A stretch of DNA of 64,000 nucleotides from contig OZ374562.1 in assembly GCA_977862235.1 (NCBI GenBank), forward strand, positions 1,550,001-1,614,000, written 5' to 3'. A model generated the notes under the pieces. That model worked only from the letters and a program-made list of their open reading frames with translations, ran no database searches and was not told the DNA's origin. The stretch comes from Dudresnaya verticillata. Taxonomy: Eukaryota. Position numbers and translations under genes: made by a program. Positions 3,685 through 43,896 of the stretch are shown here, piece by piece. Within the stretch, counting starts at the first letter, position 1; every line of letters begins with the position of its first letter.

Positions 3685-3690
3685 TCTTTT

Positions 3691-8930: not shown

Positions 8931-8960
8931 CCATTTGCTACTCGCACAAGCAGTAGTGGT

Positions 8961-12737: not shown

Positions 12738-12807
12738 CTGGTCTCCCGACCTAGAACGTGGTCCCGAAGTTTCGCATTATTCGTAATTCGTTTCTATCCG
12801 AGACACG

Positions 12808-13239: not shown

Positions 13240-13984
13240 TGCGCACTGTAATACGTTTGCCATCATGGCGTGCGCATTCACGGGGTCACTTCGAAATTCG
13301 TATTTCTCGATTATTTTCACGTAGACCACGGAGTCGTTTCGCGCACAGTGTCTATACCACACGGCCCCCTCCTCAAGAGCGAACGTCCCGGTCGCGGGTT
13401 ACGAATCACGAATTGGCGTGGCCCGGTTTCCCTCGATGGAGCGCGGAAGGAGTCATCCGAGTGGCGGCGCGGAGATTGCTTCGAGCTCACGTCGTCGCGC
13501 AGCGGTGCCTCAGAGCTTACGAATTTGAATTCGGATCACGTTTGCGATGGGGCCTTTGTATTGGCTAATCACGAAGATATTTCACGTACGTAGAACGGGT
13601 TAGGGCTTCGGCGCCGTCCGTCGACGCGTGCGAGCGCGGATCAGGGAGACGGGGCGCGAGCCGCGTGGGTTATTTCAACTTCGTGTTGCGCTGGGTCCGA
13701 GCCCCTTGCTTCTCCGGTCATCGCGCACACACACAACTCGCTTCAGCTCCTTGGATTTCGGTTTCTTGCGTCTTCCGTCGGCTTCTTCGTCTTGCGCTGT
13801 TGCGTCCGTGCGCATCTCTTCTCGCATCGTTCGCTCCGCTCCGTGGCGTTCGTATTTTTGCTTCGTTGGCCTCGGTGGTTTGCGGTGGTCGGTTGTGGGT
13901 TGCAGGTGTCGGTGTTGGGGCAAGTGTTGCGCGTCCTCCGTGGGTTTCGTTACGGTCAACTTCGTGTCACGTATCCTGCGCGAG

Positions 13985-16144
13985 ATGGTAGACAAGGGTC
14001 TCGAGGAGGGAACCGAGTCCCATGAAGAGCGCGTCGATGCGACTCGTCGTCGCCTCGAGGGTGAGCTTGCTGCTGTCGCGGAACGTGAGGCCTCGGAGCC
14101 TACGCGGGATGTTGCGGTGCCTCCGAGAGCTTCGGGTCCTTCATCGAATATCGCTGGCCCTGCGGCTGACTCCGATGAATACGGGCCACGGACTCTCGCG
14201 ATTCCGCACGTGGTGGACATCGGGGCTTCGGGGCCTTCGTGTGCGGCGGACCTCGGTAGTCCGTACGTATGTTCGGGGGGTTCGAATCCGCAATTCGCGA
14301 ATCGGGGTTGACAGCCGAGTGATTCGTTGGGTACGCCGAAATTCGGGACAAAGAATGAGAGTGCTCCGAGGCTTCCGTCTGCGCAGTTGTACTTCGCGTG
14401 GGATGAGTTCGCGATCTCCGGAGTTACTCACGAAGAGGTTGCTGCCTACGATGGCCGTGTTCGTCCGGATCTTGCTCGCTTTCATGCGCTTTGCGAGGGT
14501 CGCGATGATAACGGAGCTGGTGTCTTTCACGTATTCTGGCCCCGTGGCCCCGTGTACCCGACTCCGATGGGCCTTCCGTGTGACGCCTCCTACATAACCA
14601 AGGTCGACGAGGTTGCTTACGTAGATGCGTGTGCGCGTGTGCTCCTGGCACCGGGTGCGGGTATCGCCGTGGATTCTCCGGTGGTTGCGGTTGCTCGCTT
14701 TCGTGATTACCCGGAGTTCGAGTCCACCGCGGGAAACGTATGGCGTCACGTAGACTCGATTTCTCGCATCCTCGGAGTGCACATGGGTGCCGGAGACTGG
14801 AAGCTGTTTCGTGGCGCGGGCTCGATGCCCGATCGCGTGGATACGAATTCGCGTCTCGATGATCGCGTGCCTCTGAGCATTTTTCCGAGTTCGTTCTGGC
14901 TCGATACCCTGTGTGTTCGGGCCCCCGCGGGCTTAGTCGTGCCACCTCCGAGGGTGATTCGTTACTTCGGTCTCGTTGTCGACCTGTTTGCGGAACATGC
15001 GAAGAAGTGCTTCGTGCGTTTTCGGGATTCCGAATATCGCTTCGAGCTTGGTCGCGCGTTGATTTCGGATGTAACGCAGCGTCAATACGTATGGGTGCTC
15101 GATGTTTCGTTGCGTAGTTTCGTTCGTGATCGTTTGTCGAAATCGTTCTCCGAGGATGGCGGGTATCCGGATCTTTCGCTCCGAGGCTCGGATCGTACGA
15201 TGCTGTTCACGAAGATACTCGCGATTGCCATCGAGGCTGCGGATCGGAGGGAGCTCCAGTCGACTCGTCGCGATTTTCCGACGGTACAGTGGTCCCAAGT
15301 GGTCGGTCACGACGTGGGCTCCGGGGCTTGGTTCGATTGGCGTCACAACCGTCCTTCACGAGGGGGGCACGGTCCGTGAGTTGATCCGTTTTCGCATCCG
15401 AGTGCCGCGGTTCGTGCCATCGGAGGCGAGGTTGGTCCGTTGCCGCGTGTGCCTCGTTCCGTAGCTCCGGGCGTTTCGCCTTTGCTGACTCCGGGGTCAA
15501 CGCTTGGCACCAGGGCCGTTTCGTTGATGCCGATCGCTTCGGGTTCTTCGGTCGCGAGTCTCGAGAAGCGCTGTCCTACGGATGTTCGCACTCTCGACTC
15601 TGTGAGCGATGCGTGTCGCGAAGCGGGCATCTCCCCCGATGGGACTTTTCGGCAGCTGTTGGACGACCTCGGTGGAAGCTTACTTCGCGCGGCCATGGAG
15701 TTGAGTCGCCTTCGTAGGCAGCTTCGTGATCGGGATGCGGAGATAGCGGACCTTCGTCATCGTGTGCGAGACCTCGAGTTGGGCGGCAAGCGTCGGCGCG
15801 AAGATTACGGTTACCCGAGTTACGATGCTTCGCGTTACGGGTCTGGCTCCGGAGGCCCTTCCGGCTTCGGACCCAGCGGTGGCGACGGTTACGATGGTCA
15901 CCGCGGACAATCGCAGACATCGGATCCGTATGCGCCGAACTTTATTCGCGTGACTCGAGATGAAAACGGAAACGATCCTCGTGATAGCCCGCCTTACGAC
16001 TCCGCGAACCCGTATGGCCCGGCTCGAGCGGTCCCTAGTGCCAGAACGATGACACGGGTCCCGCGAGCAATAACGGATTTTCGATTACGGGTCCTCCGGG
16101 GGACATCGGTGGTTGAAGTGAAGCTCGGAACACTGCGGGGTTAA
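13985..16144 (+). pseudogene. Antisense accessory ORF of element C (now on + because of the inversion; two in-frame TGA stops)
   Basis: ORFs 13985-14311, 14327-15379 and 15440-16144 share one frame. RILGVHMGAGDW...SIFPSSFW...PAGLVVPPPRVIRYF...SEYRFELGRALISD...WVLD is clearly homologous to the element D ORF. Confidence 0.85.
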
Positions 16145-16486
16145 TACGGGGTTGTCGGAGGCATCGGTTGCCTGATGCGATAAAGGGTGCGGGGACTGAT
16201 TCGGATACGTGTTTTACGGCAACGTAGATTGGGCACCTGGGCCTTGCACGGGTTGAACTAGCGGCGAATTGCGGGGGTCAGGACGGGCATCAGAACGATC
16301 TTCGCGACTTCGAGCCTTTTCCTTCGGTAACGCTGCGGACACGATGTCACGAAGAGCGTTCAACTGTTCCTCCGTAAACGCGTGCGAGCTGCGAAAGGGA
16401 AGCGAGTGACTCTCCTTGCCCACGGGGGAGGTCGCGTCGCGCTCGAGCACAAGGAAACGGGTGCTGACTGCCGAGACGAGATCCCG

Positions 16487-17214
16487 GCGCGCCACGATGG
16501 CATTCGCATTACAGCACGCACGCGATACGAAATCCGTATTTCTCGATAATTCGTCCTCCGGACGAATTCAGAGCTGACTTCGTGATCGCACGACCCACGA
16601 GGGCATTCGAATTACAGTACGCACCCGATACGAAATCGCTGACACCTTCCTGATTTTCCCGTTGTTTCCCGCGCGTAACGGCACCGAGGCCCACGACGCG
16701 CGCGCACCTCCGAATGCAACGCTGGCGCACTTCGTAACTGCCACCATACGTGAGACGACCGTTCGTTGGCACCGAGGCCGCTACGAATCATTCGAGTACG
16801 AACCGTCTCCCGCGTTGACGTGTATTCGTGCTCACGTAGTATTACTTAGCCAGTCATCTGGAACAACCTCCGAGAGTTTTCGATAAGTGACAAGCACCCG
16901 GACCTCGGAGTCTTCAGTAAACGCCTGTTTCTTCGAGTTCGATGTCTTCGTCTTCGTCACCGCATATACGGTCGAGCCTCACTTTCGATAGCCCCGTGCA
17001 CCCGGAGTCATCCCCGGTAATCGATCGCTCGAGTTCTCCCTTCCGCACACGAACACGTTGACACCGTGGTCCTTCGTGTTCGTCGTTCCACTCTACCACG
17101 CTATCACCGCTTTTCCTTTCTCTGTTAGGCTACGAGGCCATTCATTAGGCTTCGAGGCTATTCCTTACAGTTCGAGACTTCCCCGCGTCTCCGTGGACTT
17201 CGTTATACAACACA
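16487..17214 (+). repeat. Distal part of the 3' LTR of element C
   Basis: Matches about 12015-12737 and ends at TSD GACTT. Confidence 0.9.
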
Positions 17215-17346
17215 GACTTGCATGTTGGTCGACTTGCTGTGGTGGAGTGCACTGATGATGTTCGGTCCGTTGTTGGATACACCTGAATGGATTTGTAGAA
17301 GACGTGCTGTGGCGAACGAGGATGTGTCGCCATTTAAGGGGGGGTC

Positions 17347-18033
17347 TGTGGTGAAGTCGCCGTTTCGGAGTGCGGACGGTGGGCGAGCTGTCGCGCGACC
17401 GTCGATAACCCGCGCTCTGCTAAGCGCGCGCCAAAAGCCGGAGCGGGAGTGCAGCGACGCAGTAGCACTGTATGCCCTGCTAGAGTCTGCACGCACCACC
17501 AATAGGAGCCAAGTAGTTGCTTTATTTGTAAGTGGGTAATTTTAATGATGCTGTACAGTACGTAGTGTCAGCCGACAAATGAGAACGCCGAGAATGTCCG
17601 CAACGGTGACCGGGACCAGTAGGGCCGGACCCACTTAGTGGACCAGACCCATGGGGGTCTGGCCCACATGGAACGGACCGCCGGGCGTATCTCGCAGTGT
17701 ATTAATGGGTGGCCACCGCGAGTCCTTCAGTAAACGGGTACGCAACCCTGGGGAAAGTGACTTACCCTAAACCCTACCCCCATACTCCTTCACGGTTTTT
17801 CCTCGCCAGCCCCGTGCACGGATTCTTGTTACCTCCGTCCCGGTGTAGCTGGCCTGGCACTGTAACGTCCCCCTTGTCTGTTGCGTCCCTTTACTCCCTA
17901 CAGGTGTTGCCGCTTGAGGTACTCCCTTCGGTCTACGAACTAAGCTCTACCAACCCGGTGCCGTGTGAGATCACTCCTTATTTGGGATTGACTGATCAGA
18001 TCTTCTTACAGGTGTGCCTTTCACTACACCATA
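17347..18033 (+). repeat. 3' LTR of element B
   Basis: Preceded by the PPT AAGGGGGGGTC and collinear with 2996-3684. Confidence 0.92.
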
Positions 18034-19346: not shown

Positions 19347-20120
19347 TGTAGTATAGACGTCGGGTCGATCCGACGTCTGATACTTGCTGGTCCGAAGCCG
19401 CCACACAGACCCGTCGATGGGTAGCTGTTGGGGTTGGTAGAGCGGTGTCGGCCGCGTGCGCCCCGCAGGTGCGGATCGACGGCGTCGATGCCGGAGCGCG
19501 CACGGGGCGTACCGTACGCGGGTAGGCAGCGGCCGGATCCCAGCGTCCCTGTCGAAGGGCGGCACGAAGCCGACGGAAAGGAAAAGGAAATGGGAAAGCC
19601 TAGCGAGGCAAGGGGAAAAGGGAAACCGCCCGCTGGCGTAAGGCAAAGGGATCGAACCCGAAAAGGCTGGGGGCAAGCTTCGGCGCGAGCTGTTGCTTGC
19701 CCGGTTTACTGAGCCGTCGATGGCCGACGGTCTTAAATACCCTACACTATGTGCACTACGACTACTTCTACAGTAGGTGCGCCCCACAACACCAACGCGG
19801 GAGGTGTGCGAGCGCGCGCCCATACACGTGTCGATATGTCCGGGTAACGGTTACCCGTGGGCGCGCGCGGGGCGTAACGGGCAGCGGCCCTCTCAACGGC
19901 TCGATGCCGGAGAGCGTCACAGGGGCGCGCCGTGTGCGGCACGGCGCGCGGCCGTTGCCGGCAGCAATGCGGTCGACCGCTACTAATTCAACGAAAAAAA
20001 GTAAGGGCACGCTGCCCAACCACGACTCGCCAGCGGGCGTCATCGTGTGCACCATTACAGTGCGGCGCTGCCAGCATACCTTACAGCCGCTGCTGATAGT
20101 GTGCTGACAGCTATACTACA
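19347..20120 (-). repeat. 3' LTR of element D
   Basis: TGTAGTATA...TATACTACA, with about 11 substitutions versus 44804-45577. Confidence 0.95.
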
Positions 20121-20437
20121 CGGCCCCCCCCTCAAGCGTGAGCGCCCCGCTCACGGCCGTTGAGGTTTCCCGGGGCCACGATGGCAATCCCGAGTGGCCG
20201 TTGACAGTGATTGGCACGCGCGCCCGTCGACGGTGTATGCGCGTACCCGCCCGTCTGCGCCGCTGCGCATATAAGGATCAACGCGGAGTCGGCGCTGGGG
20301 AGGTTGCGGGTATCGCTCTCCACGACCACCCCTTCGCCCACACGCTTCAGCACACCAGTGACCGCTGTCGTGTGTGTATCGTGCTACGCCTTCTCCGCCC
20401 CCTTCGCTCGACACGAGTGCCCACGTCGACGTGCGGT

Positions 20438-23340
20438 ATGACCAAGACGCGCTCGCCTGTCACCTGGGGCGCCCCTGACGAAGGGGCGCCCGCAACCACG
20501 CCGCCGCTGCCCGCTGGTGCGCCATCGACGGCTGCGCCGGTGGAAGCGGTGGCAGATGCCCAACAACCCCAGGCGCAGGATGCGCTGGGGGAAAGCGCCG
20601 CTGCGCTGCCACGCCCACCGCCCGCTGCGGTGGCGGCTTCGGTGCCCAGGGGCCCCGCTGCTGCTCCGACGGCTGGGGCCGGCGCCGCTGCGCATATTGG
20701 TCCAGCAGCTGCTGACCAGATTGGAGCGGGCGCCGCTGCGCCCGCTAAGACATCGGAGATGCGTCCCGCCGCTGCGGTTGACACGTCTCCCGCCCAAGTG
20801 CCTCCGGAGCCAGCAGCCGCTGCGCTGGCCCGGGGTAAGGCTACCCGACCTCTGCTGAGCTACGAGGAGGTCGAGGTGGCCACCCAAGACACTCCGCTGC
20901 GAGGTTTGGGTGGCTTGGACCGGAGTGGGGCGGCCGCTGCCGCCCCATGCCCAGAGGAGGCGGCTCCGGTCGCTGTGCTCTTTGCTGCTCCGCGCGTCGA
21001 TGCGCCACCCGTGGCTCGTGCCCTTGATCTGACGGGGTCGTCGACGGCCTCCGCGTCAAGGGGGAGCAGGATGCCGCCCGCTGCGGCTCCCTTCGTGCCC
21101 CGCCGGGGCCTCAGCGCATCGGCGCAAGGCGACCCCGGAGCAGGGGCGTCGACCGCCCCTGGCACAAGCGTGGCCGCTGCCATTGAGTCGTCATCGGCCG
21201 CTGCCGTGGCTCCCCCTCTGCCGGTGATCACCATGCGAGGGGTGTCTCTGACCATTGGGCCCCAGCGACTCGGTGTCGCGGTGCCCAATGCAGCCGCATT
21301 GCCTCCTACTGTCTTTGCGTGGGAGGCACCGCGCCACCAGATCCCGCTGGACCAGTGGCGTCGTTTGCCCGTGCAAAGGATTGACGTCCAACGTCTCCTG
21401 CGCGTGGAAGATGCGAGCGACGATGGCGGGGCCGCTGCCTACAACACCTTCATGCCCGCATCGCCGGTATGGCTCGTACCGAACGGCCTACCGTGTGACG
21501 TTTCGTTCGTCACCACGATCAAGCAGCTGCTGATCGTGGATAAGGGCGCCGAAGCCCTCTTTGTGAAACCCGTCGATGGGTCCCACAAGCCCCTCGCGGC
21601 CTCGTTGGCCTGGTTGAGGGACGTCCCCATCGAGGAGACGCCGGAGGAGGCGCGCGGTCTGGCCGATGCCGACTGCGCGCGCCGCATCCTCGGGCTGTGC
21701 ATGGGGGAGCGGGACTGGGCCACCTGCCGCGCCCCCGGTGATGGGCTCATCACCACAGGTGCCCGCTTGCACCCGGCGCTCGACGCGTCGTGGTTTCCCT
21801 CCGCGGAGTGGTACTCGCACCGGGACGTGCCCGCTGGCATGATCGTCCCGTGGCCCAGCATCGAGCGATATTTCCACTACGCCGCGGCGGGGAATGAGGC
21901 AGTTCGTCGAGAGCTCCTCGCTAGGCGCTCCGACGAGTATGCCTTTGAGGTGGGGCGTCGCTACGCCTCCGACATCCTATCGAAGGAGATTTGCTGGGTC
22001 CTCGACGACCGCATTTTGGTGTACCTCGATGTACTGTGGCGCAGCGGGCGCCCGGGCTTCCCACGCCTCCGAGGCGCGGCAGGCCCGGACAAAACTTCGG
22101 TGACGTTCGAGTTCGAGCAGCTGCTGAACACGACGCGCTTCGTGGCCGCTACCAGAGAGAAGCACACCCGTCGCCGCCACTTTGCAACACGCGTCGATGC
22201 GTTCATTTGCGGGGTCAACCCAGTGGCGGGGACCTTTCACAAGATCCAACGCGCACGCGCGCCGCGGAAGGATCGTGGCTACGCCTCGATGGCGGACATG
22301 GCCCGCGTCGAGCGGGCCGCTAAGCCGCGCGCCCGTCGGGGCCTATGTGGGGCATCCAAGTCGGCCGCTGCCGTTATGGCCTCGGAGGCCGAGCCCTACT
22401 TGTCACCGGTGCCGCGTGCCACGGCACCAGCACCTCGAGCTGTGGTACCACCTCCCCCGGCCGCTGCCATGGGTGGAGGTCAGGAGAAGCAGGCAGCAGT
22501 CGACCCGCTGCCCGCTGCCTATACGTCGTCGAGGCAGGCGGTGAGGTATGGCCCACCGCCATCGATGGCGGTGGCTGCCTATGTGCCGCCGCCCACAACC
22601 GATGCGCTCGATGCGCCGATGGCAGCGAGCCTCTGGAGCGACCAAAATGTACGCCGCGCCGCTGCGCTGGTACAGTTGGGTGAGGACGCGCCGCTGCGCA
22701 CCCTCGTTGCCGCCTTTGCAGCCCATCTAACGGGAACGCATGACGATCTCGCCGCTGCGAACGCCATCGCCCTTCGCTACCGCACCGAGCGGGACAGGTT
22801 TGGCACGATGCGCAACGACTGCAGGAAGAATTGAGGCGCGCTGCCCATTCATCCCCAGTCGTCGGGTCCCTCGGCAAGCGGCCACGAGAGGAGTACCAGC
22901 CGCCCCCGATGCTGGCGCCGACGCAGCAGCCGATGCCGTCATATGCGCCAGCACAGGCTGCGCAGCAACCGATGCTGCCTTATGCCGTCGGGCCCGCTGG
23001 CCAGATGCTCCCATGGGGACCTTCCGGCTACACCCCGTCGATGGTGGTACAGGGCGGTGGAGTCCCACAGCAGCCGGGCGCCGCTGCGCCCGTCCCCCCG
23101 GGCTACATGCCGCAGGGGTATGGTCCCCCAGTGGGGCAAGTGAGCCCTGCTGGGTTAGCGGCCGCTGCCGCTGGCGCCGCTGCGGTGTACCACACGTCGG
23201 GTACCGCGGCGGGCGCTGCCGCGCCAACTCAGCCGCGAGCTGCGGCCGAGGCGACCGGTTATGACCCCTCCGCCCCTGGATTTGCGTCGTCGATGAAAGC
23301 TCAGCCGGAAGCGGGGGCCGGGGGCAACGCTGCCCAATAG
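20438..23340 (+). CDS. Antisense accessory ORF of element D (probable frameshift near 22830)
   Basis: Open frame 20138-22834 with a likely start ATG at 20438 downstream of a CATATAAG box at about 20268. Ala/Pro-rich N-terminus, conserved core, helical module. GKRPREEY in the 22831-23340 frame matches GKRRREDY in element C. Confidence 0.8.
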
Positions 23341-24560
23341 TGCGATCGACGCATAATATCCGCGGGTGCTGCGGCACCCAGCGATTCGAGCGCCGCTGCG
23401 CCTTTTAGTCCAGTTATGCCGCTGCGTCGTTTAGACATGTTAAAAGGGAAAGGGGTGGGATATGGCTTCGGCCCGCATCGATGCGAACTTATTTGTGGCG
23501 AGAGCGTTCGCCGGCGCAGCAGCTCACCACGTCGGGCCGCTGCCCAAGGTGAGTGCTGCGCGCGCGCGCATCGAGCCCGCGTGCGTCGCCAGTGCGTCAC
23601 GACAGCGGTCGTCTCGGCGCGGGGCTTGCTGGAGCCGCTGCTCAGGGGCAATAGGCAAGCGTGCCGATCCCATGTGACGCCCCGGCGCCGCTGCGCGACA
23701 TGCCGCCTTGGCATGGGGGGGTCACAGTGGCTGCCCTTGCGCGCCCGTCGTGGGCGCCTGGTGCCACGGCGGCTAGCTTCGGCGAGGCCGCTGCCTCGCA
23801 CCCACTTGCCGGCGGCGTGCCGCTTCTGGCTACTCGATCAGCCGCTGCTGTTGCTCCCGCCGGGAGGCGGTTTGCGCCCAAATTTTAGCCAATCGTTGGC
23901 TGGGGAATTTTCGCAACCCCGTGCATTGGCTGTTGCCTTCCGGCCCGCTGGCCTGGTTGGGTGTTTCCCAACCCCCGGCTACAGTACGTACTGTAGCCGG
24001 AACACTTTTCGCGCTCGATGCGCTGCGTGCGCCCCGCGCCGAGGCGCACGCCAAAAGTGACGCTCGCTTTTTGGGGTGCCGTTGCACATCGAGTGCGACG
24101 GCACTCCGGTGTATCCGAGTGAAATGGCGATCGGGCCGCTGCCCTTTGTCCCACACCACTTCGCTTCGACAGCGACGGCCTTGGGCGCGTCGACGCCGGT
24201 GAGCGGCTTCGGTAGCCGTTGGTCAGCGCCCCCTTACCTTGCGTGCGTGAGGCGTCGACGCCTGTCACGCACGAAGGCGAGGTATCGGTTGCGTCTCCTC
24301 GCCGCTTGCGAGTGCGTGCAACCAGCCCGGGGCCGCTGCCCCAGGCTCGGTTAGCTGGCAGCTGCCCTGCGCGCATCGATGCGCCGGAATCAGCGTTCTG
24401 CTGCCCCCCTCTTGCGCTGCTGCCGCTGCTGCTGCCGCAAGGGTGACCTGTCTGGGCTCGGTGCCCAGTGCAGGGTAGGGTGAGGCATCGATTGCCTTTG
24501 CAAAAAGGCAACGAATGCCTGCGGCCCCCTCCTCAAGCGCGAGGCGCCCCTGCCGAGGGG

Positions 24561-27500
24561 TTATGAGGAGGAGCGAACGGCTTCGAGCCGGTTGGTGTTT
24601 CGCCGCCGCTGCGATGCGAAATAGTGGCTCACCATCTCCTCGGGGAGATGGGAACGTGGCTCCCACGTCGGCTTGCGATAGCCGGTCCACTTCACCTTGA
24701 ACACGAGCGTGCCATCGTCGGCTGTACCGTGGTCAAGGACCTTATCCACCACGAACCGCGGGCCGTCGACGGCTTTGGACGCGAGTTCCTCAGTGGTGGA
24801 TAAGTAGGCGCTGCGCTGCGCAGTATCCTCCCGTAGCGGCGGGGGACAGTAGACGGCGCGGTCCGCTGCGATGCGTTCGACCAAGCCGCCTCTGTCGATG
24901 AGCAGCGTGCGCTTGTCGTTAAGCAGCACGCGGTAGGGCCCTATCGCTGGGCTCTGGAGCTTCTTGGGTTTCTTAACCCTGTCGCTCGCGTCGATGAAGA
25001 CGTAGTCTCCCGCTCGAATGCGGGAGTTGACTTTTCTGACACGCTTGTCGAAGTCTTTCTTGTAACGCCGCTGCGTTTTTTCGAGAGCGCTCGATGCGCT
25101 TGCGAAGGCGGCGTCGAGCCGCTTGAGGAAGTCCGCGCGCACGTCCTCACTAGGTTTCGGTCTGGCCGCTGCCTTATGAAACTTAGTGAACTCCGGCGGC
25201 GGCCGGGACAGCACGAGGCTGAAGGGTGTCGTCCGCGTCGTGCGATGGACATGGCAGTTGTAGGAATACGTCAACGCCGCTGCGTATCGATCCCAGTCGT
25301 CCTGGTGATCGTTGATGTAATTCCTCAACATGGCCATGACGGTCCAGTTGTAGCGCTCAACCTGACCGTTCGCCTGCGGGTGGTAGGCGGACGTGAATAC
25401 GTTGTTCAGTCCGAGGTAGCGGCACACTGCCTGAAAGAACTTAGAGGTGAATTGCTTCCCGTTGTCGGACAACAGAGACCTCGGTGGTCCATAGTGGAAG
25501 ATCCACCTCTCACAGAACGCCACTGCGACGTGGTACGCTGTGATGGTGCGCAGCGGCGCTACTTGAGTCAGCTTCGTGAAGCGATCCGTCATGACGAGCA
25601 GGAATCGCTTTCCTGACTTCGTCTTGGGCAGCGGCCCTAGGATATCGATCGTGAGCGACTCGAGCGGCCTCGTGGCCGGGAACAACTTCAACCGATGAAG
25701 GGACCTCCGCAATCGTATGCGGTTCCTGGCACAGTGCCGACAGTTCCGAACTGTCATGGCTATGTCCGCTGACATGTGTGGCCAGTAGTAGCTCTCGCGG
25801 AGCGTGTAGAACATCCTGTTCTGGCCAGGGTGGCCAGCCAGGAGGGAGTGGTGCGAGAGCGTGAGAAGCCGCGGCTGTAGCGCTTCGGGCACCACTATTT
25901 GCTCCAACGAGGAGATGACGGGGTGACGCCGGCACAAGAGCCTGTCCTCGTCCTCGAAGAAGTGGCTATCCCGTCGACGGGACTGCCGTGCCAACACTGT
26001 TTGGCAAAAAGAGTCGCGCCGCTGCGCATCCACCAATTCCTCGACGGTTATTGGTGAAGGGAGCTTCACCGGTTCGACCCGGGTGAGGTCCGTCGGCTCT
26101 TGGCTCGCGTCGATGCGGCCAAGGTCGAAGAGGTCGACGTCGTCGCAGTCGTCCCGGGCTTCGTCGTCGGCAAGCCCCGGTGGTCGTCGCTGTCCGAGGG
26201 CTCCTTGGCTTCGCTGCCAGTGTCGTCCACTGCAGCCGGTCGATCCGGCGCCTTCCGCGTCGATGCGTTGGCTTGGGACCGCGTGGTCAGCAAGACCGAC
26301 GGTGCCTTGGGTTCGGTACTCGAGGCACCCTCCTTCTGGCGGTCGACCGCCGGGGGGTCATAGGTAGGGATCTCGTCGTCAACCTCCTCTTGCTGCGTCG
26401 AGGCCTCACCAGGCGGGACAGCGCGTCCAGCACCTGGTGTACCCTACCCGGGCGGTACTCGATCTGGAAGTCGAATTTCGCGAGTCGTAACCGCCAGCGG
26501 GTGAGGCGACCGGACGAATCGGTCAAGGACATGAGCCAGCGCAACGCGTCATGGTCGGTTCGTACCGTGAACCGGGTCCCTTCGATGTAGGGACGCAGGG
26601 TTGTGATCGACCACACCACTGCAAAGCACTCGCGCTCCGTGGCCGAGTAGTTTCGCTCCGCTGAGCTTAGTGAGTAAGACCAGTACCCAACGGGGTGTAA
26701 CTGGCCGTCCTCTTGCTCCTGGAGCAGGGCGCATCCGAGCTGGTACGCCGATGCGTCCGTGTCGAGGACGTACGGCTTGCCCTCGCGAGGGAGCCGTAGG
26801 ATAGGAGGCGATAAGAGTGTCGCCCGCAGCGTCTCGAATGCCTCTAGCGCCGCTGCGCTTGGATTATCGAAATCCACATCCGCATCCTTGCGGGTCATAT
26901 CCGTCAGCGGACGAGCGATCTTCGCGAAGTTCCTGACGAAGCGGTGGTAAGCGTTACACGCCCCGAGGAAAGACCTCACTTTGGTTAGGGAGGTCGGGAA
27001 CTGCGCATGGCGGAACGCGTCGATGCTTGTCTTCGCCATGCGTAGTTTCCCCGGCTCGATCACGTGACCGAGGTAGTCCACGCGGGACTGGAAGAAGTGG
27101 CACTTCTTCAGCTTCACAGACACGCCGCCCTTGCGAAGCAGAGTCAGCACGCGGTCTAGGTGACCGACGTGCTCCGCGATCGACCGCGAGAATATGATCA
27201 CATCATCGAGATAGATCAAACAACACTGCCATCTAACTCCGCTGAGTATGATGTCCAGTGCACGCTGGAAAGTCGCAGGGGCGTTCTTCAGTCCGAAGGG
27301 CATCCGCAGATAGCGGAACGTCCCTAGGAACGTCGTGAACGTGGTCTTATCCCTGTCAGCCGCTGCGACAGGGATTTGCCAGTACCCCGCGTTACAATCC
27401 AGCGTGGAGAAAATGGCAGCGTCGCCAAGACTGTCGATACAGTCATCCATGCGTGGGAGTGGGTACGCATCGCTCAGGGTTTTGGTGTTAAGACGTCGAT

Positions 27501-28788
27501 AGTCCACACAAAACCTGAGCGTGCCATCCTTCTTGGGCGCCAGAACGACTGGCGATGCCCACTCCGACGTGGCGGGTTCGATTACCCCTGCACGCAGCAT
27601 GGTCTCGACCTCGTTCTGTACGAGCTTCCGCATAGCGGGGCCCTGTCGATAGGGCATTGAGCGAATTGGCCGCGTGCCGGGTTCCACGTCGATGTGGTGT
27701 TGCGTAGCGGCAATCGTGCCTAGCCTCCCGTCCCACATGGACTGATGCTTCCGAAGCATGGCGAGGACTTCTTCGCGGGTGACCTTGTCTTTGATAGACG
27801 AAAGGTCCACCTGCGACTCCCAGTCCTCGATGGACTCTCTTTTCTCCGCCGCTGCGGTTGCTGCCCCTTGGAGCTTTGTGGGCTCGGGGCCCCTCGCCAT
27901 CGACGGCGTGACTGGGGGGTCGTTGCTCCCCTTACCCCTGGGCCGCTGCCCTTTGTGGGGAAGGGTGGTGATATTCATCACCCTCCCGAACTCTTCCGCG
28001 ACGTCGCGGTCCGGGATTATTAGGGCGACTGGGTTGCGGACCGCATAGCCAACCACGGTACCCTTCGGTAGGGTCCGGGCTTTGTCCGTCCAGTTGCCCA
28101 TGCTAACCCCGAAGGGTCGCCCCGACTCGATGTCGTGCACCCCGTTGGTCAGTCTCACGCCGTGGCGGAACTGCAACGAGGGTTTGGGCTCCGTGTGGAT
28201 TAACCCACTAGCCCCCGACGTCACCGAGACGAGCCTCTGCGAGTAGGCTGGGACAACCACCTGCCTAGCGAGGCGTATGGTGTGGGTATCGTGATCCCAG
28301 TCGAGAAGCTCCCGCTGGTGCTTCTTCGACAAACCCTTCGATGGGTTCTTCGGCTGCGTTGCCGGACCGGTTCCCTCGCTAGGGTTCCTGAGGCTGAGGA
28401 TGGGCACCGGGCCTCCTTTCCTCAGCGTCAGCCTTCTCGACTCGACGTCGATTCCGCGCACGTGCGCATTGATAAACTGCGTGCCTATCAGTACGTCGAC
28501 CGCGAGCGTGTCGGCGACGATGAAAGGCACGCGGAACGTCGTGTTCCCCAACCTCATCGAGAGGTGGACGACGCCGGACAGCCTCAGCGGAGTCTTGTCG
28601 GCGCCTGCCAGGCGTGGCGCGGAGTCGATCTCTGATGCGTTTTCCTCCCAGCCTGCGGGCAGGGCACCTCGAGCGATGAGGTTGTACCCGGAGCCGGTGT
28701 CCATCGCGATGGTGTGGGGTATCATAACCCGCGGGTCCGCACCGAGGGACCCGGACACTCGGTAAATCTCGGAGGACAGGAGGCACAC
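24561..28788 (-). pseudogene. pol: pol of element D (PR, RT, RNase H, integrase, chromodomain), frameshifted near 26300
   Basis: MDTGSG; IYLDDVII; DTDAS; HHSLLAGHPG..CRHC; IDILGP..SDNG..QVERYN; IGPY; FVVDKVLDH..FKVKWTGY..TWEP. Confidence 0.95.
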
Positions 28789-29217
28789 GTACCCATCGGG
28801 GGTAGTGGCCGGCTCTGCGTCGATGCATGGAGCCCCGGTACCCTCGCGTCGAGCGTCGGGTACCGCCTGTCCCGCCGTTGGGGAGCTGCGCCCTTTTCGC
28901 CTAGCCTGCCGCTTGCGTCGACCGCGGCGGCCAGGGTGGCTTGGTACGCGTCGCCCACGACGTCCCGTCGACCGGGACGTCGTTCGTGTCCTTCGAAGCG
29001 CCGCTGCGCTCGACGTGGGGGCTCGCTGCTCCCAACGCCGTCGAAGGTGGAAGGGACGGTGGGTCAGGTGTTGGACAAGACGGTGCGCGCGACCGCACGA
29101 GCAGCGCCGCCTTTATTCTTTTTCCGGATCGACCCGGTCAGAATTATCCTCGGAATCCGAACTTTCGTGCTCGATTCCGATTGGGTGTTTCGTAACCCCT
29201 GAGGCGCCTTGCGTCGA

Positions 29218-31539
29218 TCACGGAGGCGTATCAAAAAGGAGAGGGGACTCGCTTCCCTGCGCGATGGCTGTCTCTCCCTTGTGCCGCGCGTCGAGCCCTT
29301 GCGGAAGCCACTCGTCGGCGGTGAGGCCTGTGTGCTCCTGCACCGTTATAACTGCTCGGAGCAGTTCGCGGCGCGGGTCGGCCCTCGGAGGCGTCGATGC
29401 CTGAGGTTGACGGCCAGCGTGCTCGTCGAAGCCGACCCGCTTATCGCGCAGCAGGAGCCGCGGTGCGTCGCCTTGGCGGTACTCGCGGCGTGGGTCTCGA
29501 CGATCCCCGCGGTACCCCTGCGGCTCTCCGCGGTACCTTGGTGCGTCCATGCGCTGCGGGGGACCTCTCGCGTCGAAGCGTCGGTCTCCACCCCGCGGCG
29601 CATCGTAGCGCCGTGCGGGGCTCCTTGTTCTTGCGCCCGCTGGCGCGCGCTCGTCGATGAGCTGTTGGAGCATATTGCGCGAATGCGGCTGCGTTTCCAT
29701 TCGATGGTTGCAGTTCGCATACGCGCAGTACGTCTGCTGTTCCTTCGTGCGGTACGGGCACGAATACATGATGTGCCCGACCTCGCGGCAGAACCAGCAG
29801 ATGTACCATCCCTGTCGATCAGGGATGACTGCGCGTGCCATCGCCTCCTGCGTTGGAGTGAGCGGTGGTATGCGCTTGGGTAGGACCGCGTCGATGCGTC
29901 CTGTAATGTCGAGGGTCTCGACGGCCTCGGCCGACCCGGCTGTCGATAGCGCGGGTGCGACCATCACGGGTTCGAACCCGTCGGCGTCGGGGTCCACCAG
30001 CATTGTGCTGTCGATAGCAACTTCCCCGCTGGGATAGCTTGGTGGGCCCTCGATGAGCAGTGTACGGCCGCTTGCCGAGCTGCCCCCTGACCTGCCGCGC
30101 CCCGAGGTGTTCGTAGGCTGTGCTGCCTTTGCCGAACGGGTGCGGTAGGTTGTGCCCTCGCTATGGGCACTCCGACGAACGGTACTAAAATTGGTCTGTT
30201 CGACCATAGGCAGCTGCCTGACCCTCTCCGCCACTGCGGGTCTTTTCGTGGGAAGCAGGCCCCGAAGGAACTGATGCGTCAGGTTCTCATCGGAGTATAC
30301 GCCAGCGCAGGCGTCCGCATACCCTTCGAGGCGAGTAGCGAACTCAAGCTCGGACTCGGCGTCCCTCTACTTGGCGGTGGTCAGCCGGTCATGGGCATCT
30401 GCGATGACGTCGTCCGTGACGAACCTCTCGACGAGGGTATTGACCACCGAGGCCCAGCAGGGTGGGGTGCCGCGCTGCGTTGTGCGCACCCCAGAGAACA
30501 GGTGACTCGAGTACACACCTGCGACGCGGTTCCATCGAGGAACCAGGACACCACCCGCGCCGCTGCGCCTTCGGATAGTCCAACGCCATTGAATGCTTGG
30601 CGTAGCTGTCGAAGCACACCAAGCAGGCGAATCGGCTCCTTGCCGTCGAACCGGTCGAGCCGGAGCATCAGGGCCTTCATGCGGCTGACAATCTTCGCAG
30701 TGTTGCCGCTGCACACCTGCTGTTGATTGTCCCGCTGATCTACGTCATCAAGACGGTACGAGCGGTAGTCGATCGCCTTAGCGAACTCTGGCACCAACGT
30801 GGTTAAAGGCTCGATGCCTGCCATGAGTGGGCCCCAATGCCAATAGGCAGAGACGGGGCCCTCGTGCTGTCGGGGGGTCGGTCCCCCCTTTGTGTTTTGC
30901 CCGTCGAGGGCTTGTTGGAGCAACCTGGGGTCGACCCCGTAGAACGGATTGGGGTCCCCACTCGGATGGTGCGACCCCGCCGCACTCCTCGGTGGAGATG
31001 GTGGTGGTGAAGGAAAGTGGTGCCGAGCTCGTTGCTCGGCAAGTATGGCAGCGGCCAATTCTTTAACTGCACCCGCTGGTGACTGCGGTCGCGGAGGAGA
31101 GCGCTGCGCCGACGACGGGCCTGTAGCCCGTTGGCGTTGCCGCGTCGGCGCGCTCTATCAACTCAACGGGGCGGCGTAGCTCATCGAGGAGCCCCTGTGA
31201 CCGGGTTATTCCGTCCTCGATGGACGCCAAAGGACCGCGTCGAAGCGTGTCCAGGTCTTGCTGGCCGTCGGCCTTCGCCTCAGCTATCGAAGCTGTAAGG
31301 TGGTCGTACACCTCGGCTAGCGAGTCCATGGTCTCCTCATAGAGCAGCTGGAGGTCGGCCACCGAGACCAGACTCCCGGCGAGGGCCTTTTGCAGCGCGG
31401 CCCTCCGCTCGAGCCTCACATCGTGTAGAGGAGTACCTGAGACGCCGATGGTACTCAGTATTGAGGTGCGACGCGTCGCGTCCTCAACTTTTCCGGCAGC
31501 GGCCGATGCGGCAGCGGCCGGGTCAGGAGGACTCGACAT
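29218..31539 (-). pseudogene. gag: gag of element D (disrupted)
   Basis: DYRSYRLDD, RFDGKEPIRLL and zinc knuckle CWFCREVGHIMYSC, spread over several frames. Confidence 0.85.
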
Positions 31540-31601
31540 CCTTTACGTCGATCGCGTCGATGCGAGAAGTACTTGGGTCTCGACGACTTCTAGGTCGGGA
31601 G

Positions 31602-32498
31602 TGTAGTGCAAAACGTCTTTGACGGACACTGCCGAGCAGTTCGGGGCTCGGTGGTAGCGACGCCTGCGGCGATGAGTGGCCTTGACGTGGGCGTCTGGTG
31701 GTAGAGCGGTTGACTCGCCTTGGGCGGACTGTAAACGCCCTTGGCGGAAAAGAAGAACAAAAGGAAACAGAAAAGGAACACGTCGAGGACGGGTAGAGAC
31801 GTGGAAGCACGGAGGTAGACGCTTAGCCGTAGGCAGCGGTAAGGTACGCGCGTGCTGAACGGGGAAGTCTGGACCAAGGCCGGCTTGCCGGGGTTTACTG
31901 TGACGTCTGAGACGGATCAACTAAGTACAGGATTACCTAGCGGCGGCGACGCGGATGTACGCGTAATGCGGGAACTCGGGACACGTGTTGTCCCGAGGCG
32001 CGTCTGACAGATCCGTCCGTCATGCAGCCGCGCTCCTGACAGATCACGCGTAGTTCCCCGCGCGAGTCCTTACACCTACACGTGGATCCTTTCCTTACAG
32101 CCGCGCGCGCGCCTCATGGCGCGAGCGATCTCGATCCGTACCGATCCCGATCCAGTCCGGATTCGGGCCAGCGATGCGGATGCGCCAGGCTTACAGGCGT
32201 GTGCCTTACACCCCTTAATCCCGATGTGGGATCCCGATTGGATCCGGATTCGGGCCACGCTTACAGCGAACGTTCCCGCCACTGCGCCACGCGCGCACGC
32301 GTGGCGCCGTACAGTGGCCGGGTTCAGGCGTGCGGTCTGCACGCCCAGTGAGCCGTTCTGGCCCAAGTGGCCAGCGGCATGCGTCGGTGACGTGTTTGCG
32401 CCGCGGGCGGGTTGAGCGCGCCGTTGGCGGTCGTCCGTCGGTAGACGCTGCATATTAACGCTTGAAAGGGAAAACGGGGGACCCCCCCTGGCACTACA
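31602..32498 (-). repeat. 3' LTR of element E
   Basis: TGTAGTGC...GCACTACA, near-identical to 43897-44793. Confidence 0.95.
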
Positions 32499-32960
32499 CG
32501 ACCCCCTCCGAAAACGCAAACACGTCAACCTGCTTCAGCCTGCCTGCCTTCCCGCGTCTGCGTCTCTTCCAGTGCCGATCGTGTCGGTCACCCGCGTCTT
32601 CGCGCCTGCGTTTTCCCGCCCTGGGCGTTGGTTGAGCCCCGTCAAAGACGCACGTTCAGTTGTCCACCCGCCGTTGGCGCAGCAAGAACTCCGTCGAAGA
32701 CGTGTTGTTGACTAACTTCGCCAGTGGCGTGCGTGAAACCCCGTCGTTGACGTCGTATCTTGTGCACGCGTGCGTGCGCTCATCGCCTAGGGCGTTTCTT
32801 TGAGGTCCGCCTTCGGCGTTGTTCAGTCCAGCGTCGTTGACGTGTGCCGTGTTTGCTTCCGCCTTTGGCGTAGTTGACTCCACTGCGGAGTCCGAGACCG
32901 TCGTTGACGTATCGTGTGAAGTCCGCCAGTGGCGTGTGATTACTCAACGTCTCAGACGTA

Positions 32961-35267
32961 ATGGCGCAGTTCACTGGCCTGCAAGTGGCTGCGCCTTCGG
33001 CGGCGCCGGTGTATCCGTCCCCCTTCGACTTCGTCGGGAGGACGCCCCGCAACGATGCGCGATTATTCTCGCGGGCCCCCTGGTTCGACCAGGAGGCCCT
33101 GCGACACGAGGATCTCATCACCCATTACGCTGTGAGCGGATTTTTGCCAGGGGAGTTGCCCCTGGCCGTCGTGTGGACGAACGAGTGGCGCCACCGGTGC
33201 GCCATTCCGCGGGGTTGGCTGCGTATTGCCGCTGGCCAGACGCGTGCAGATGCACATGCGCGTTTCGTCGTCGACGTATATCGGCGGTTTACCCGCTACC
33301 CGGGGTCGGTATTGACGCCCACCGTCTTTGAATTTGACGCAGGGCAGTACCGCACAAATGGCGAGGTGGGTTATGGGGACCGTCTTGGGACGTTGTCGTT
33401 AAGCCATGTGGCTGTTTTGGCTGAGCCGCGGGTGCTTCAGGAGGCTAACCTCCTTGGTGTACGCTTGAAAGCGGATTTCAGATACTTGCATAGGACGGGC
33501 ACCTTCTATTGGGAGCGCTGCGTCCGTTGGGAGTGTGAAACGCGCCGCCGCAAAGGCGTTTTTGTACCGTATCAAGATACGCAGGTTGATCGCATTGAGC
33601 GGGAAAAGTTGCCGCATTGCTTCATTCGCGTCCCGCCGATGTGGCGGGACTTTGAGGTCTGCGAGGGCTTTGCGGCTGAATTGCCTCCGTGTGTCACGTA
33701 TATTGGCTCCGAGTTGCGGACGGATCCGTACTCCCGATGTTGGATCGTATTTTTCACCGAGTGGGTCATCAACGTAACTTACGCATGGATGTGGGAGGTG
33801 TATGATACCTTCCGGCTCTATTATGTGCCGCCACGCGTAGTCAGCCTCCTTGGTGGGCTTGACTTGACCGAAGTGCTGGGTGGTGCCAGGAACTGCCAAG
33901 AGTTCTGGGATTTACGCCATGTGGCGGATAACGTCAACTGGGACGACCCGGTAGCTGTGCCGCCGGGAAACCGGCGCCGTAAGGCAAACCGTCCGTGTTA
34001 CGCGGTGAGTAGGAATCATTCCGCCTGTGGCGATTGGGTATGGTACAACCCGTGGATCAAACGTCTTACGACGGAGAAAATCGCTGAGAGTCATCGTCGA
34101 ACGGACCGCTTCACGCCAGCGAATCACCCACGTGGGTTACGCAAGAATTGCGACTTTTCGGGGGATTTCCCACCCCACTTGAGCGCCTTGATGGCGGAGG
34201 AGGATGCGTTTCACGCTAGCAGCGGACCGGTTAACCCGTCTGGGACGGACGTCGTTACGCCTATGGCGGTTGAGCTTACTGCGGGGGCGTCAGCTCCCGC
34301 GACGATTTCGCCAGCGGCGGTAGGGCCGTCGGCTGTTGTGCCTGTTGGCTTGCCGTCGGTTGCGCCGTTGGATCTCTCGGCTCCCGTCAATGACGGTGAT
34401 GGTGATGCCATCATGGCTGCGCCCATGGCGAGTTCTGCGTCTGCAGTTACGCCTCAAGGCGGCTTGTCTAACGTCGCTGACGGTGCGAATCGCCCTCCTG
34501 CAGTGCCCGAGTGGACTGAGGAGCAGCGCCGCACGGTGCTCGCATTCTTGCGAGCTACCGGTGTCGTCACTGACGGGTCGGGCGGGTCATCCACGACGCC
34601 CCTCGGGCACTCGCTTCTGGCTGCTCTGCAGCCCAGCGTTGCTGCGGTTCCGACGTCGACCGTCGTTGCGACTGCGCCATCTAACGACGAAGGTGTAGCG
34701 TCTAATGACGGAGTGGCGGAAAAGCCTTTGTCGCCTAAGGCGGGTTGTGCGAGTTCGTCCGCCATTGCGTCCACTGACGTTGGTAACAAAAGTCCTCCAA
34801 AGGCGAGTGCGGTGGTAGCGCCTACGGGGGTCCCGCAGGCTCCAGTGGCCTCTTCGTCGGTGACGGTTGTTGATCGTTCAACGCCTTCGGCGGTTAATGC
34901 GGTCCCGTCAACGGAGGTGCCGGGGCCGTCGACTGCGCCCAAGGCGGTTGAGGATGCTCCGCCGCCAAAGGCGCGTGAGCGTCCTGTTGTAGCGCCTAAG
35001 GCGGATAATGACTCTAACGTTGCGCCTATGGCGGTTGACGAACAGTCGTTGCCTAAGGCGGGTTGTGAGACAGGTGCGTCGCCAGCGGCGGGTGTCGTGA
35101 CTTCGACAGCAGTGGTTGTGGCGGGTCCCTTGCGGTCCGTTCCTGCCCCTGCTGCGAGCGTACCGTCGGTGACGGAGGACGACCTCTATGAAGAGGCGTT
35201 AAGAGAGTCCGCCAATGGCGTTGGGGATGATGCTCCACTTGAGCCGTCTGCAACGAAAAAGGCGTAG
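32961..35267 (+). CDS. Intact antisense accessory ORF of element E, 768 aa, unknown function
   Basis: ATG-to-stop ORF opposite to gag-pol. Trp/Tyr-rich globular N-half containing FIRVPPMWRDFEVCEGFAAELPPCVTY...EWVINVTY...RLYYVPPRVVSLL; Ala/Pro/Ser/Val-rich C-half. Confidence 0.85.
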   Translation: MAQFTGLQVAAPSAAPVYPSPFDFVGRTPRNDARLFSRAPWFDQEALRHEDLITHYAVSGFLPGELPLAVVWTNEWRHRCAIPRGWLRIAAGQTRADAHARFVVDVYRRFTRYPGSVLTPTVFEFDAGQYRTNGEVGYGDRLGTLSLSHVAVLAEPRVLQEANLLGVRLKADFRYLHRTGTFYWERCVRWECETRRRKGVFVPYQDTQVDRIEREKLPHCFIRVPPMWRDFEVCEGFAAELPPCVTYIGSELRTDPYSRCWIVFFTEWVINVTYAWMWEVYDTFRLYYVPPRVVSLLGGLDLTEVLGGARNCQEFWDLRHVADNVNWDDPVAVPPGNRRRKANRPCYAVSRNHSACGDWVWYNPWIKRLTTEKIAESHRRTDRFTPANHPRGLRKNCDFSGDFPPHLSALMAEEDAFHASSGPVNPSGTDVVTPMAVELTAGASAPATISPAAVGPSAVVPVGLPSVAPLDLSAPVNDGDGDAIMAAPMASSASAVTPQGGLSNVADGANRPPAVPEWTEEQRRTVLAFLRATGVVTDGSGGSSTTPLGHSLLAALQPSVAAVPTSTVVATAPSNDEGVASNDGVAEKPLSPKAGCASSSAIASTDVGNKSPPKASAVVAPTGVPQAPVASSSVTVVDRSTPSAVNAVPSTEVPGPSTAPKAVEDAPPPKARERPVVAPKADNDSNVAPMAVDEQSLPKAGCETGASPAAGVVTSTAVVVAGPLRSVPAPAASVPSVTEDDLYEEALRESANGVGDDAPLEPSATKKA

Positions 35268-36470
35268 CCTTTGTTAGGTCGCTAAGAACGATTAGCGAAC
35301 GCGAGAGCGCGTGTGGTGTCGCTTTGCCTGCCCCGTGGTGGGGCGGCGAGCGAGGGATTCATACGTCATAGACGGTTAGTGCCGCGTCTCACGACGTAGG
35401 TCGTAGTGGAAGCTCATGCGGGCACGGGGGTTACCCTCGCTTGTGAAGCCCGAATAAACTTGACCGTTGTCCAACGTAGTTGCTTATGTGTCCGCTTGAT
35501 GTAGAGCGCTGCGATAGCGAGCAGTAGGTAGCCGACGGGTCCCGTTCGTATAGACGTTGTTGTTGTCTGTCCGCTGTAGTAGCGTTTGCGTAAAGGCTTG
35601 GGGCGGTGCCGCCTTGATGGCGTTTTTCTCTTTCCTTGATGCCGCTACATTAGCGTAAACCCTTTTGGGAGGGTCCATTTTCTCATGCCGACTTAGTCGT
35701 TTTGTTCCAATTGTGGTTCCGCTTGTTGAGCGAATATGTAGTTGGGGAGCCGTTTGTCGGTAGGCTTTTCGTCTTTGACGTAGAGCATGTTGGGTTAGCG
35801 TCGGGGACGGTTAGCTTGGCGACGCGCCGCGCGTGGGGCGCGTTTCTTGCGACTCCTGGGCGTGGATGCCGCGCCCAGCGGCGGAGTCATTTTTGCGATT
35901 AGCGCGTCGTGCACGAAACGTAGCCCAACTCCGTATTCGACGACTTCTTCTTCTCTCGTGTTTGCGGGCGACCCCTTTTTCGACTTGAGACACGTCGTTG
36001 ACGTTCGCGGGCGTCACCCTCGAGGCGGTTGCGTGCGCCGCCCGTAAGGGTGGCGAGTTTCGGACTTGGCCGTGAGTGGAGCGCCTGGGCGAGGACGTCG
36101 GAGACGGTCGGTCGCGTCCGTGCTCGGGTGCCTCGTGGGCGTTCGTAGTGCTGGGCACACACTTTTCAGGTTCTCTTTTGTTGGGCGCCGCCGCCTGGCT
36201 GGTGCCTTCGCGTTATTGTTTTCACATTAAAAATTTCCATTCGTTTGTTGCCCGATTTCGTGTGGTGCGTGCGCCCTCCACGCCTCCTGACTACTGTCAG
36301 CCGTCCTGTCCTTACGGACCCCCTCCGAAGAGGGTTGCCTATTCGCGTGTCGCCAACCCAATCGTCCTTGATCCGGTTGATTACAGCCCCCGTCGTTCGT
36401 AACGAGTGCACGTCGGCGGCACTTTGTATGTGGCGTGTGTTGTCGCTTCCAGCGTCCACCCTGACTAGGG

Positions 36471-43894: not shown

Positions 43895-43896
43895 GT

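Follow-up and report, generated by a model that had tools for sequence, protein, structure and literature searches.

Several described systems resemble, each in part, the locus presented here. In MS2, the hepatitis B virus pre-genome, and picornaviruses, assembly is mediated by packaging signals—many dispersed stem-loops, variable except for a short recognition motif that they have in common (PMC6281560). The VANC proteins of Arabidopsis VANDAL elements are diverging, element-encoded accessory proteins paired with family-specific short motifs in many copies; these are plain double-stranded DNA (dsDNA) words in non-coding regions, multiplied as tandem repeats, such as YAGTATTAY for VANC21 (PMC5735166). 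Plant Ty3/gypsy retrotransposons (Retand, Grande, RIRE2) carry antisense open reading frames (ORFs) between pol and the 3' long terminal repeat (LTR), for which a regulatory, possibly nucleic-acid-binding role has been proposed (PMC7264820, PMC11963269), and Sireviruses have hairpin-forming palindromes that differ among families and are a proposed source of small interfering RNA (PMC4728375). A 2026 preprint on transposases as regulators concerns DNA transposons. How retrotransposon proteins choose their own RNA or DNA among co-resident families is an open question, as is the function of the antisense ORFs, stated to be unknown in PMC7264820. Here we examine a window of 64,000 nucleotides from Dudresnaya verticillata (GCA_977862235.1, contig OZ374562.1, positions 1,550,001 to 1,614,000) that holds the nested LTR retrotransposons A, C, D, and E, with a focus on element D, a Ty3/gypsy element with a chromodomain.

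Element D is studded with very short inverted repeats—85 sites under a loop list picked after seeing D, 67 on the plus strand and 18 on the minus strand of the window. Their arms co-vary, the stem ends at four pairs, the code is family-specific and present at synonymous positions, and the stems are conserved in related clades. The reading that we favor, at a probability of roughly 45%, is that such family-specific mini-hairpins serve as a self-recognition code on a single-stranded replication intermediate, where an element-encoded protein would read them. Dispersed viral packaging signals appear to be the best analogue, since D and E, judged from sequence and covariation, likewise carry many dispersed stem-loops sharing a recognition motif; the differences are that the carriers here are LTR retrotransposons, that stems have exactly four pairs, that both orientations occur in D, and that the codes of co-resident families differ. 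A literature search, with most subscription papers and supplements outside its reach, found no description of such hairpin codes; paper supplements could hold transposable element (TE) annotations bearing on novelty. The words 'antisense' and 'hairpin' are absent from the accessible main text of a red-algal genome preprint (10.1101/2025.02.11.637652).

The starting point was a word, GCCGCTGC, that the sequence-only reading of this stretch had counted by eye at about 40 plus-strand and about 7 minus-strand copies, with about 1 expected. Exact counts are 42 and 7 in 19347-31601 (46 and 9 over the whole window), and the expectation in D is 1.2, 1.5, or 5.6 under Markov models of order 1, 2, or 3. 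A similar bias had been noted for CGTCGATG, and it holds at 18 plus to 2 minus copies; E, said to have few or no copies of GCCGCTGC, has 0. Seven of eight quoted gag/pol positions are exact, the eighth being 30559 and not 30558, and the LTR of D does not share the plus-strand bias, having one copy on the plus strand and two on the minus strand. Alanine-rich coding combined with high GC content might produce such a word as an artefact, and 13 of the 15 antisense-ORF copies and 5 of the 9 plus-strand pol copies do read as Ala-Ala-Ala. Against 1000 synonymous-codon shuffles, however, the antisense ORF has 15 copies versus 2.1 (maximum 7), the integrase 5 versus 0.37, the reverse transcriptase (RT) segment 4 versus 0.45, and one gag segment 2 versus 0.29 (the other gag segment has 0), and a further 10 copies stand in the non-coding spacer. 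The enrichment therefore does not vanish once Ala codons and GC content are controlled; with the flank covariation described next, the chance that it is an artefact is next to nil.

The sequences flanking CCGCTG are complementary to each other: positions 1, 2, and 3 are paired in 68, 62, and 59 of 78 cases, versus 40, 28, and 24.5 with shuffled flanks, and position 4 is at chance (23 of 78 versus 18.6). All of G-C, C-G, A-T, and T-A are seen among the pairs, and complementarity is present in each of three parts taken alone, namely the antisense ORF, the non-coding part, and pol/gag. The D motif is thus not a plain word but a stem of four base pairs on a CGCT loop; 37 of the 49 GCCGCTGC copies are extended by two or more further pairs, and CGTCGATG is a longer-loop form of the same design, the loops CGCT, TCGAT, GTCGAT, and TCGGT having in common a 3' CG-x-T ahead of the closing G. 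The strict form NNN-CCGCTG-N'N'N' occurs 50 times in D with 0.4 expected. The full code exceeds synonymous shuffles in five of five coding segments, which together contain 55 of the 85 hairpins—8 versus 0.2 in the integrase segment (24564-26150) and 13 versus 0.6 in the RT segment (26290-28800), for example—and 15 hairpins lie in the gag region (29113-31602). Applied elsewhere in the window, the same loop list finds no site in E; C contains 2, and A and the 18 kb on the right-hand side contain 1 each. Two further ideas about these sites were rejected: an amino-acid cost of the code in D pol (rare residues make up 10 of 59 in hairpins and 136 of 907 outside) and a helical phasing of the sites.

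Element E has a code of its own, CG-YY-NNN-RR-CG, with 98 matched versus 8 mixed inner arms in 31603-43897 and an expected count of 3.2; it exceeds synonymous shuffles in three of four coding segments, and a fifth pair is avoided (11 of 98 versus 26.1 expected, p 1.6e-4). The near absence of mixed arms argues for pairing within one strand, as opposed to a dimer on independent half-sites. Two other words had been singled out as repeated in E; each has only four copies, but both belong to this 98-copy motif. The D and E codes are mutually exclusive, as E holds none of D's 85 and D holds 1 of the E type, which agrees with the suggestion that each family has its own dispersed motif. In A, a signature CCG-NNN-CGG occurs 37 times versus about 4.4 in 2996-11800, with an outer pair that does not co-vary. 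The signature of C, NN-TCCGAG-N'N', is weaker (12 versus 0.7) and lies partly in duplicated LTR sequence; C has no CCGCTG hairpin and is also marked by TTCG, which like TACG had been described as saturating the element and is in fact enriched (108 versus 60 for TTCG, 47 versus 26 for TACG) without reaching saturation. As a separate observation, C is poor in D and E code words (GACG 20 versus 55.7, CGAC 27 versus 55.1, CGGC 16 versus 40.8, CGCC 17 versus 38), a depletion that could possibly reflect avoidance of the signals of other families.

Relatives show how widely such hairpins occur and whether they are kept. Searches with the integrase turned up 80 loci in metagenomes, 20 in genome bins, and 4 in viral contigs, and bin searches added 25. 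We analyzed 84 loci of at least 2 kb among L001-L088 and left out 4 shorter loci, the viral loci (4), and 12 bin matches that were weak or short. The viral contigs contained no true relatives (0 in one search, 4 weak rve matches in another). Gypsy pol is found on contigs of the bacterial bins G001-G003 (L081-L088, L105-L129), with 17 RT matches in G001; these contigs are presumably eukaryotic contamination. Hairpins are abundant in 40 of the 84 relatives, poor in 34, and intermediate in 10, and richness follows the integrase tree (FastTree, with long-branch warnings): two large clades are rich, two are poor, and the rows near D are mixed, so that the trait represents few independent cases and not 84. 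With a spacer of 0, inverted repeats are not in excess in any of the 11 groups (ratios 0.81-1.22); in the rich groups they peak at spacers of 3-6, as wide as genuine hairpin loops, which matches what single-strand hairpins require. With each four-fold site entered a single time, by comparison with a natural reference copy, and with base-matched sites as controls, stem sites are less variable in four of four rich groups (58/173 versus 89.7; 47/159 versus 67.7; 67/214 versus 86.5; 65/142 versus 91.6; p 9e-7 to 4e-3) and in neither of the two poor groups.

This conservation bears on whether the inverted repeats are functionless products of templated mutation, through fold-back template switching during reverse transcription. 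As a property of a family's RT, such a process would yield strict Watson-Crick pairing and clade-level inheritance, and hairpin-templated repair could also reduce stem divergence. Because four-fold stem sites in rich groups vary less—divergence in stems is lower, not higher—the data point to selection over templated mutation, with templated repair as a possibility; the sharp four-pair limit, the fixed loop, and the depleted fifth pair of E are further reasons to consider this origin improbable. Double changes in which pairing is retained are not more frequent than elsewhere in two of the rich clades, which have 97 for 2825 single changes and 17 for 1274; the poor clades give 75 per 1332 and 132 per 2311, and a third, more diverged rich clade gives 429 per 3629.

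Selection could also act on hairpins as general local structure that breaks long double-stranded RNA, compacts RNA, or hides it from a host nuclease or sensor, in which case there would be no reader and the family differences would be historical. Most rich relatives show many loops and stems of four to seven pairs, with up to ten in the clade of L015, L018, L028, and L033 (7-10-pair stems, 10- to 50-fold excess, CCC/GGG arms, CTAG or CCAAGG cores), and their stem selection is clear without a fixed motif. A purely structural role nevertheless seems rather unlikely. The loop of D is fixed: C[CGCT]G accounts for 41 cases and its reverse complement for 9, sites closed on TCGA number 7 and 3, and every other tetraloop is seen at most twice. 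E has fixed outer pairs and loop length and an avoided fifth pair, which generic stability would not favor, and families in one genome exclude each other's codes. Among the relatives, L086 and L087 share a sharp code, CT-NN-N4-NN-AG (40 versus 7.1 and 33 versus 7.4). A preference for UNCG or GNRA tetraloops was rejected (G..A 211/13433 versus T..C 201/12159).

The sequence-only reading had taken the motifs for plain dsDNA words, each bound by its family's antisense protein as in VANC with YAGTATTAY. Dispersed family-specific motifs and a diverging accessory protein fit this proposal, as does the signature of A with its outer pair free of covariation. The hairpin-poor clades, too, repeat plain words in both orientations with unpaired flanks (CCCG[AC]GG and CC[CT]CGAG in L013, L072, and L020; CTGGCGC in L005, L010, and L056); their enrichment is modest and its significance uncorrected, and they are possibly true duplex-DNA motifs. 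These candidate words, together with a four-pair cut-off that misses the code of A, mean that the poor clades may use another signal. For D and E, independent half-sites would predict the mixed arms that E nearly lacks, the variable flanks of D co-vary, and loop-less palindromes are not in excess; arms that co-vary in the manner of a hairpin set the motif apart from words of the YAGTATTAY kind, and the proposal in this form is very improbable. VANDAL elements are Mutator-like DNA transposons with a transposase. D is a retrotransposon whose motif consists of co-varying inverted repeats, spread through coding sequence as well and mostly single—only two tandem arrays, both short and two-copy, hold GCCGCTGC—and the D system is not a member of the VANC group, from which it departs in element class, motif form, and placement. 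The antisense protein showed no Pfam, PDB-sequence, or fold match, in libraries where the presence of a VANC model was not established. The Sirevirus palindromes also differ in placement, being confined to LTRs (PMC4728375), whereas the tiny stems described here extend over the entire element.

The antisense ORFs of C, D, E, and their relatives are, by sequence comparison, one uncharacterized, diverged superfamily. The conserved core of the D protein is 31% identical to the C ORF; a profile search with it defined a family of 21 representatives (10 were looked up, and none had a name), where a word-based search found nothing. The E antisense ORF has no BLASTP match to D but is matched by the D-family profile at E 5.4e-9, and hhalign of the family alignments gives 94.9% for D with E (E 4.7e-8), 89.8% for E with a third group, and 41.2% for D with that group. 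Since dN/dS is 0.15-0.63 in 31 of 32 pairs of relatives (the remaining pair, at 1.00, covers the first 154 codons only), the ORFs are by this measure real genes under purifying selection. Structurally, the D core gives a confident model (pLDDT 88.4, pTM 0.87), and Arg, Asp, and aromatic residues are conserved in it. It matched nothing in Pfam, among PDB sequences, or by fold, and has no detectable link to any known family: the best Foldseek hits have E 2.6 (PDB) and 0.47 (BFVD), and the best VIA hit has Z 2.8 at an rmsd of 4.5 over 95 aligned residues. The E model (pLDDT 57) likewise found no fold match (best Z 3.1, rmsd 2.5, 50 aligned), though a missing match is no proof of a new fold. The ESM Atlas gave no usable match for the D core, and three contaminated genome bins gave none for the E core; Pfam, the search that bears on a TRP28 domain, matched neither the D and E cores nor the family cores, no direct comparison with TRP28 having been made.

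In position and orientation, this conserved antisense ORF of D is the same as the Retand-type ORFs of plants. Retand itself is a flowering-plant element from a non-chromovirus lineage and has a TRP28 domain and tandem arrays (PMC7264820), whereas D combines a chromodomain with relatives in red algae and a protein family that has no match. Three ideas about the protein were abandoned. A methyltransferase, suggested by a conserved Pro-Cys in the D family, was dropped because helices make up most of the model and members of the E family lack the Cys; the occurrence of selected antisense ORFs in hairpin-poor clades led us to reject any strict tie of hairpin load to the antisense ORF; and L003, which has the closest antisense homologue of E, does not share the E code (CG..CG with loop 3 at 10 versus 8.6). 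The most specific version of our reading—that red-algal LTR retrotransposon families each write 40-100 mini-hairpins of their own geometry over their full length and that an antisense protein of new fold reads exactly these, as RNA or single-stranded DNA, in orthogonal self-recognition for packaging, export, or anti-silencing—is possible but doubtful.

The same protein might instead bind DNA hairpins extruded in chromatin, at transcription bubbles, R-loops, or cruciforms induced by protein, and counter the silencing of its own family, a VANC-like system that reads shape. Stems are intact in both orientations, and pairing in D and E is strictly Watson-Crick; the E and A codes are strand-symmetric, and a CpG lies within every code of this window. 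Within D, hairpins are densest in the spacer, in the LTR, and toward either end of the antisense ORF, at 8.9-10.8 per kb versus 4.8 in pol, and C, D, and E differ in both antisense protein and code where L086 and L087 share both. TE methylation together with small RNAs is reported for a red seaweed (PMC8566409, a review). Set against these points, antisense genes are selected in clades without hairpins, and the partial tolerance of G-U on the genomic strand points to RNA. Four-pair stems, moreover, are not expected to leave duplex DNA unaided, and we regard a chromatin role as unlikely. The G-U argument comes from pairwise comparisons in which changes making G-U (genomic strand) are tolerated above those making A-C in two of three rich clades (0.84 versus 0.49; 0.77 versus 0.43), and for the folded molecule in relatives we lean slightly toward RNA over DNA. 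Isolated hairpins are predicted to be stable on either strand as RNA or DNA, those of D at -4.0 to -4.6 kcal/mol as RNA, with an in-context pairing of about 0.5-0.65. Most D sites are on the plus strand of the window, a strand that the antisense transcript and first-strand cDNA share.

In the self-recognition reading, the roughly 85 four-base-pair inverted repeats of D, with their fixed loop, would form mini-hairpins wherever the RNA or cDNA is single-stranded, and a protein encoded by the element would recognize the hairpins of its own family during replication. Many weak sites may add up: a transcript or cDNA richer in own-family hairpins would be preferentially packaged, exported, or protected, and an additive benefit per site could both spread the code over the whole element and stop co-resident families from using one another's proteins. 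Candidate readers are Gag, as in viral packaging signals, or the antisense protein in a Rev/Tat-like accessory role; the candidate folded molecules are genomic RNA, antisense RNA, and first-strand cDNA.

A number of findings weigh against this reading. The conservation evidence comes from relatives 34-48% identical to D in integrase, not from D's own family. Most rich relatives carry generic hairpins with varied loops instead of one fixed loop, and 34 of the 84 have no excess yet possess pol and, in those where an antisense ORF was seen, an ORF under selection; neither hairpin-poor clade lacks selected antisense genes. The third rich clade has no G-U/A-C asymmetry (0.60 versus 0.57), with noise in the controls, and at the level of sites the test is weak (68/91.8 versus 64/112.5, pooled); static G-T and A-C excesses are nearly equal in pooled relatives (1.32 versus 1.24), and in D and E themselves wobble variants do not rise above background. 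The 18 of 85 D sites in the opposite orientation have intact stems (9 of 13 for CAGCGG), which one RNA strand does not explain, and with 40-nt flanks the predicted RNA stem pairing drops to 0.53-0.58 in D and 0.32-0.41 in E.

At this locus, both a candidate signal and a candidate reader can be specified, the one to the base and the other to the residue, with the D and E codes as built-in negative controls for each other, and the locus adds a protein superfamily without a fold match. If the reading is correct, packaging-signal-like or VANC-like logic would extend to retrotransposons in structural form, and the families would constitute a natural library of orthogonal protein-hairpin pairs like MS2/PP7, with possible use as hairpin-binding tools.

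The features of the locus are collected in Table 1. The sequence-only reading had ended D at 31601; the element in fact runs on beyond it, with E inserted in its primer-binding site (PBS) and the second LTR on the far side. All structural hallmarks are present—paired LTRs with TG...CA ends, a 5-bp target duplication (GAGTT at both ends), a PBS, and a polypurine tract (PPT)—and Pfam gives the order RT-RNase H-integrase, with the chromodomain after the integrase, on the minus strand. Named relatives among the best 120 of 277 integrase matches are Chondrus crispus proteins, so that the host is probably a red alga.

Table 1. Features of the nested elements in the window, with positions counted from its first letter.
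Feature	Position	Strand	Description
D mini-hairpin code	19347..31601	.	NNN-C[loop]G-N'N'N'; loop CGCT (50) or 4-6 nt ending CG(A/G/C)T (35)
D 3' LTR	19347..20120	-	774 bp, TGTAGT...ACTACA; 98.6% identity to 44804-45577; 7 D-type hairpins
D PPT	20121..20140	-	adjoins 3' LTR; from sequence
D antisense ORF	20108..22834	+	908 codons between stops; N-terminus rich in Ala/Pro, followed by conserved core; no Pfam match
D antisense protein conserved core	21230..22330	+	confident, mostly helical model; no fold match
Second frame overlapping D antisense ORF	22744..23340	+	Pro/Gln/Tyr/Gly-rich translation
D non-coding spacer	23341..24560	.	13 hairpins (density 10.7 per kb); PPT-like copy at its end, about 24521-24545
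D integrase and chromodomain segment	24561..26357	-	Pfam PF17921, PF00665, PF00385
D RT and RNase H segment	26287..29112	-	Pfam PF00078, PF17917; frame differs from integrase segment
D putative gag region	29218..31542	-	three ORF pieces: 31063-31542, 30381-31154, 29218-30366
D 5' LTR	44804..45577	-	
Element E	31602..44793	-	nested in PBS of D; target duplication GGGAG
E antisense ORF	32940..35267	+	775 codons; remote homologue of D antisense ORF
Element C	11885..17213	+	pol-less; nested in A; antisense ORF homologous to that of D at 14312-15376
Element A	2996..18031	+	older, LTRs 90% identical; C nested inside

The gag and pol of D are split over several ORF pieces. The gag region is assigned by position; Pfam found no match there, and its piece 30381-31154 has a 29% match to the gag-position ORF of E; the protease would lie within the RT segment. 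A similarity of the gag starts of C and D, seen by eye, was dropped when tblastn did not find it. The D antisense ORF probably starts at the ATG at 20438, and this copy appears to be broken by a frame change near 22744..23340, because the overlapping second frame is likely its original tail; low-complexity tails that resemble this frame by eye are found in P0121, P0122, and P0133. Just outside the ends of D, at 19071 and 45865, are D-type words with complementary flanks, and about 18890-19346 plus 45578-45830 may be another LTR remnant.

Element A retains a fragment of an E-type antisense ORF at 10737-10856 (E 4e-5). In C, the internal segment 13239-16486 is apparently inverted, seemingly taking in the first 123 bp of the 3' LTR, the PPT, and the antisense ORF, and a further C-family LTR lies on the minus strand at 1115-1959. 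One PBS, TGGTCTCCCGACCTAGAA, is common to all four elements (D 31585-31601 + 44794-44803; E 43875-43897; C 12739-12758; A 3690-3712), and we take its primer, as a guess, to be tRNA-Tyr. ARAGORN found no tRNA, and Rfam had 0 matches in 19000-46000. Directly after pol, D (24521-24545) and E (36315-36336) have a second PPT-like copy resembling the 3'-LTR PPT, which may be a trace of the acquisition of the antisense segment or a site of second plus-strand priming. Elsewhere in the window, two long ORFs have no Pfam match (60009-62462, plus strand, 817 codons; 46636-48291, minus strand, 551 codons), and an ORF at 50109-51311 on the plus strand encodes a TIR domain (PF13676, E 3e-20), possibly as a host immunity gene.

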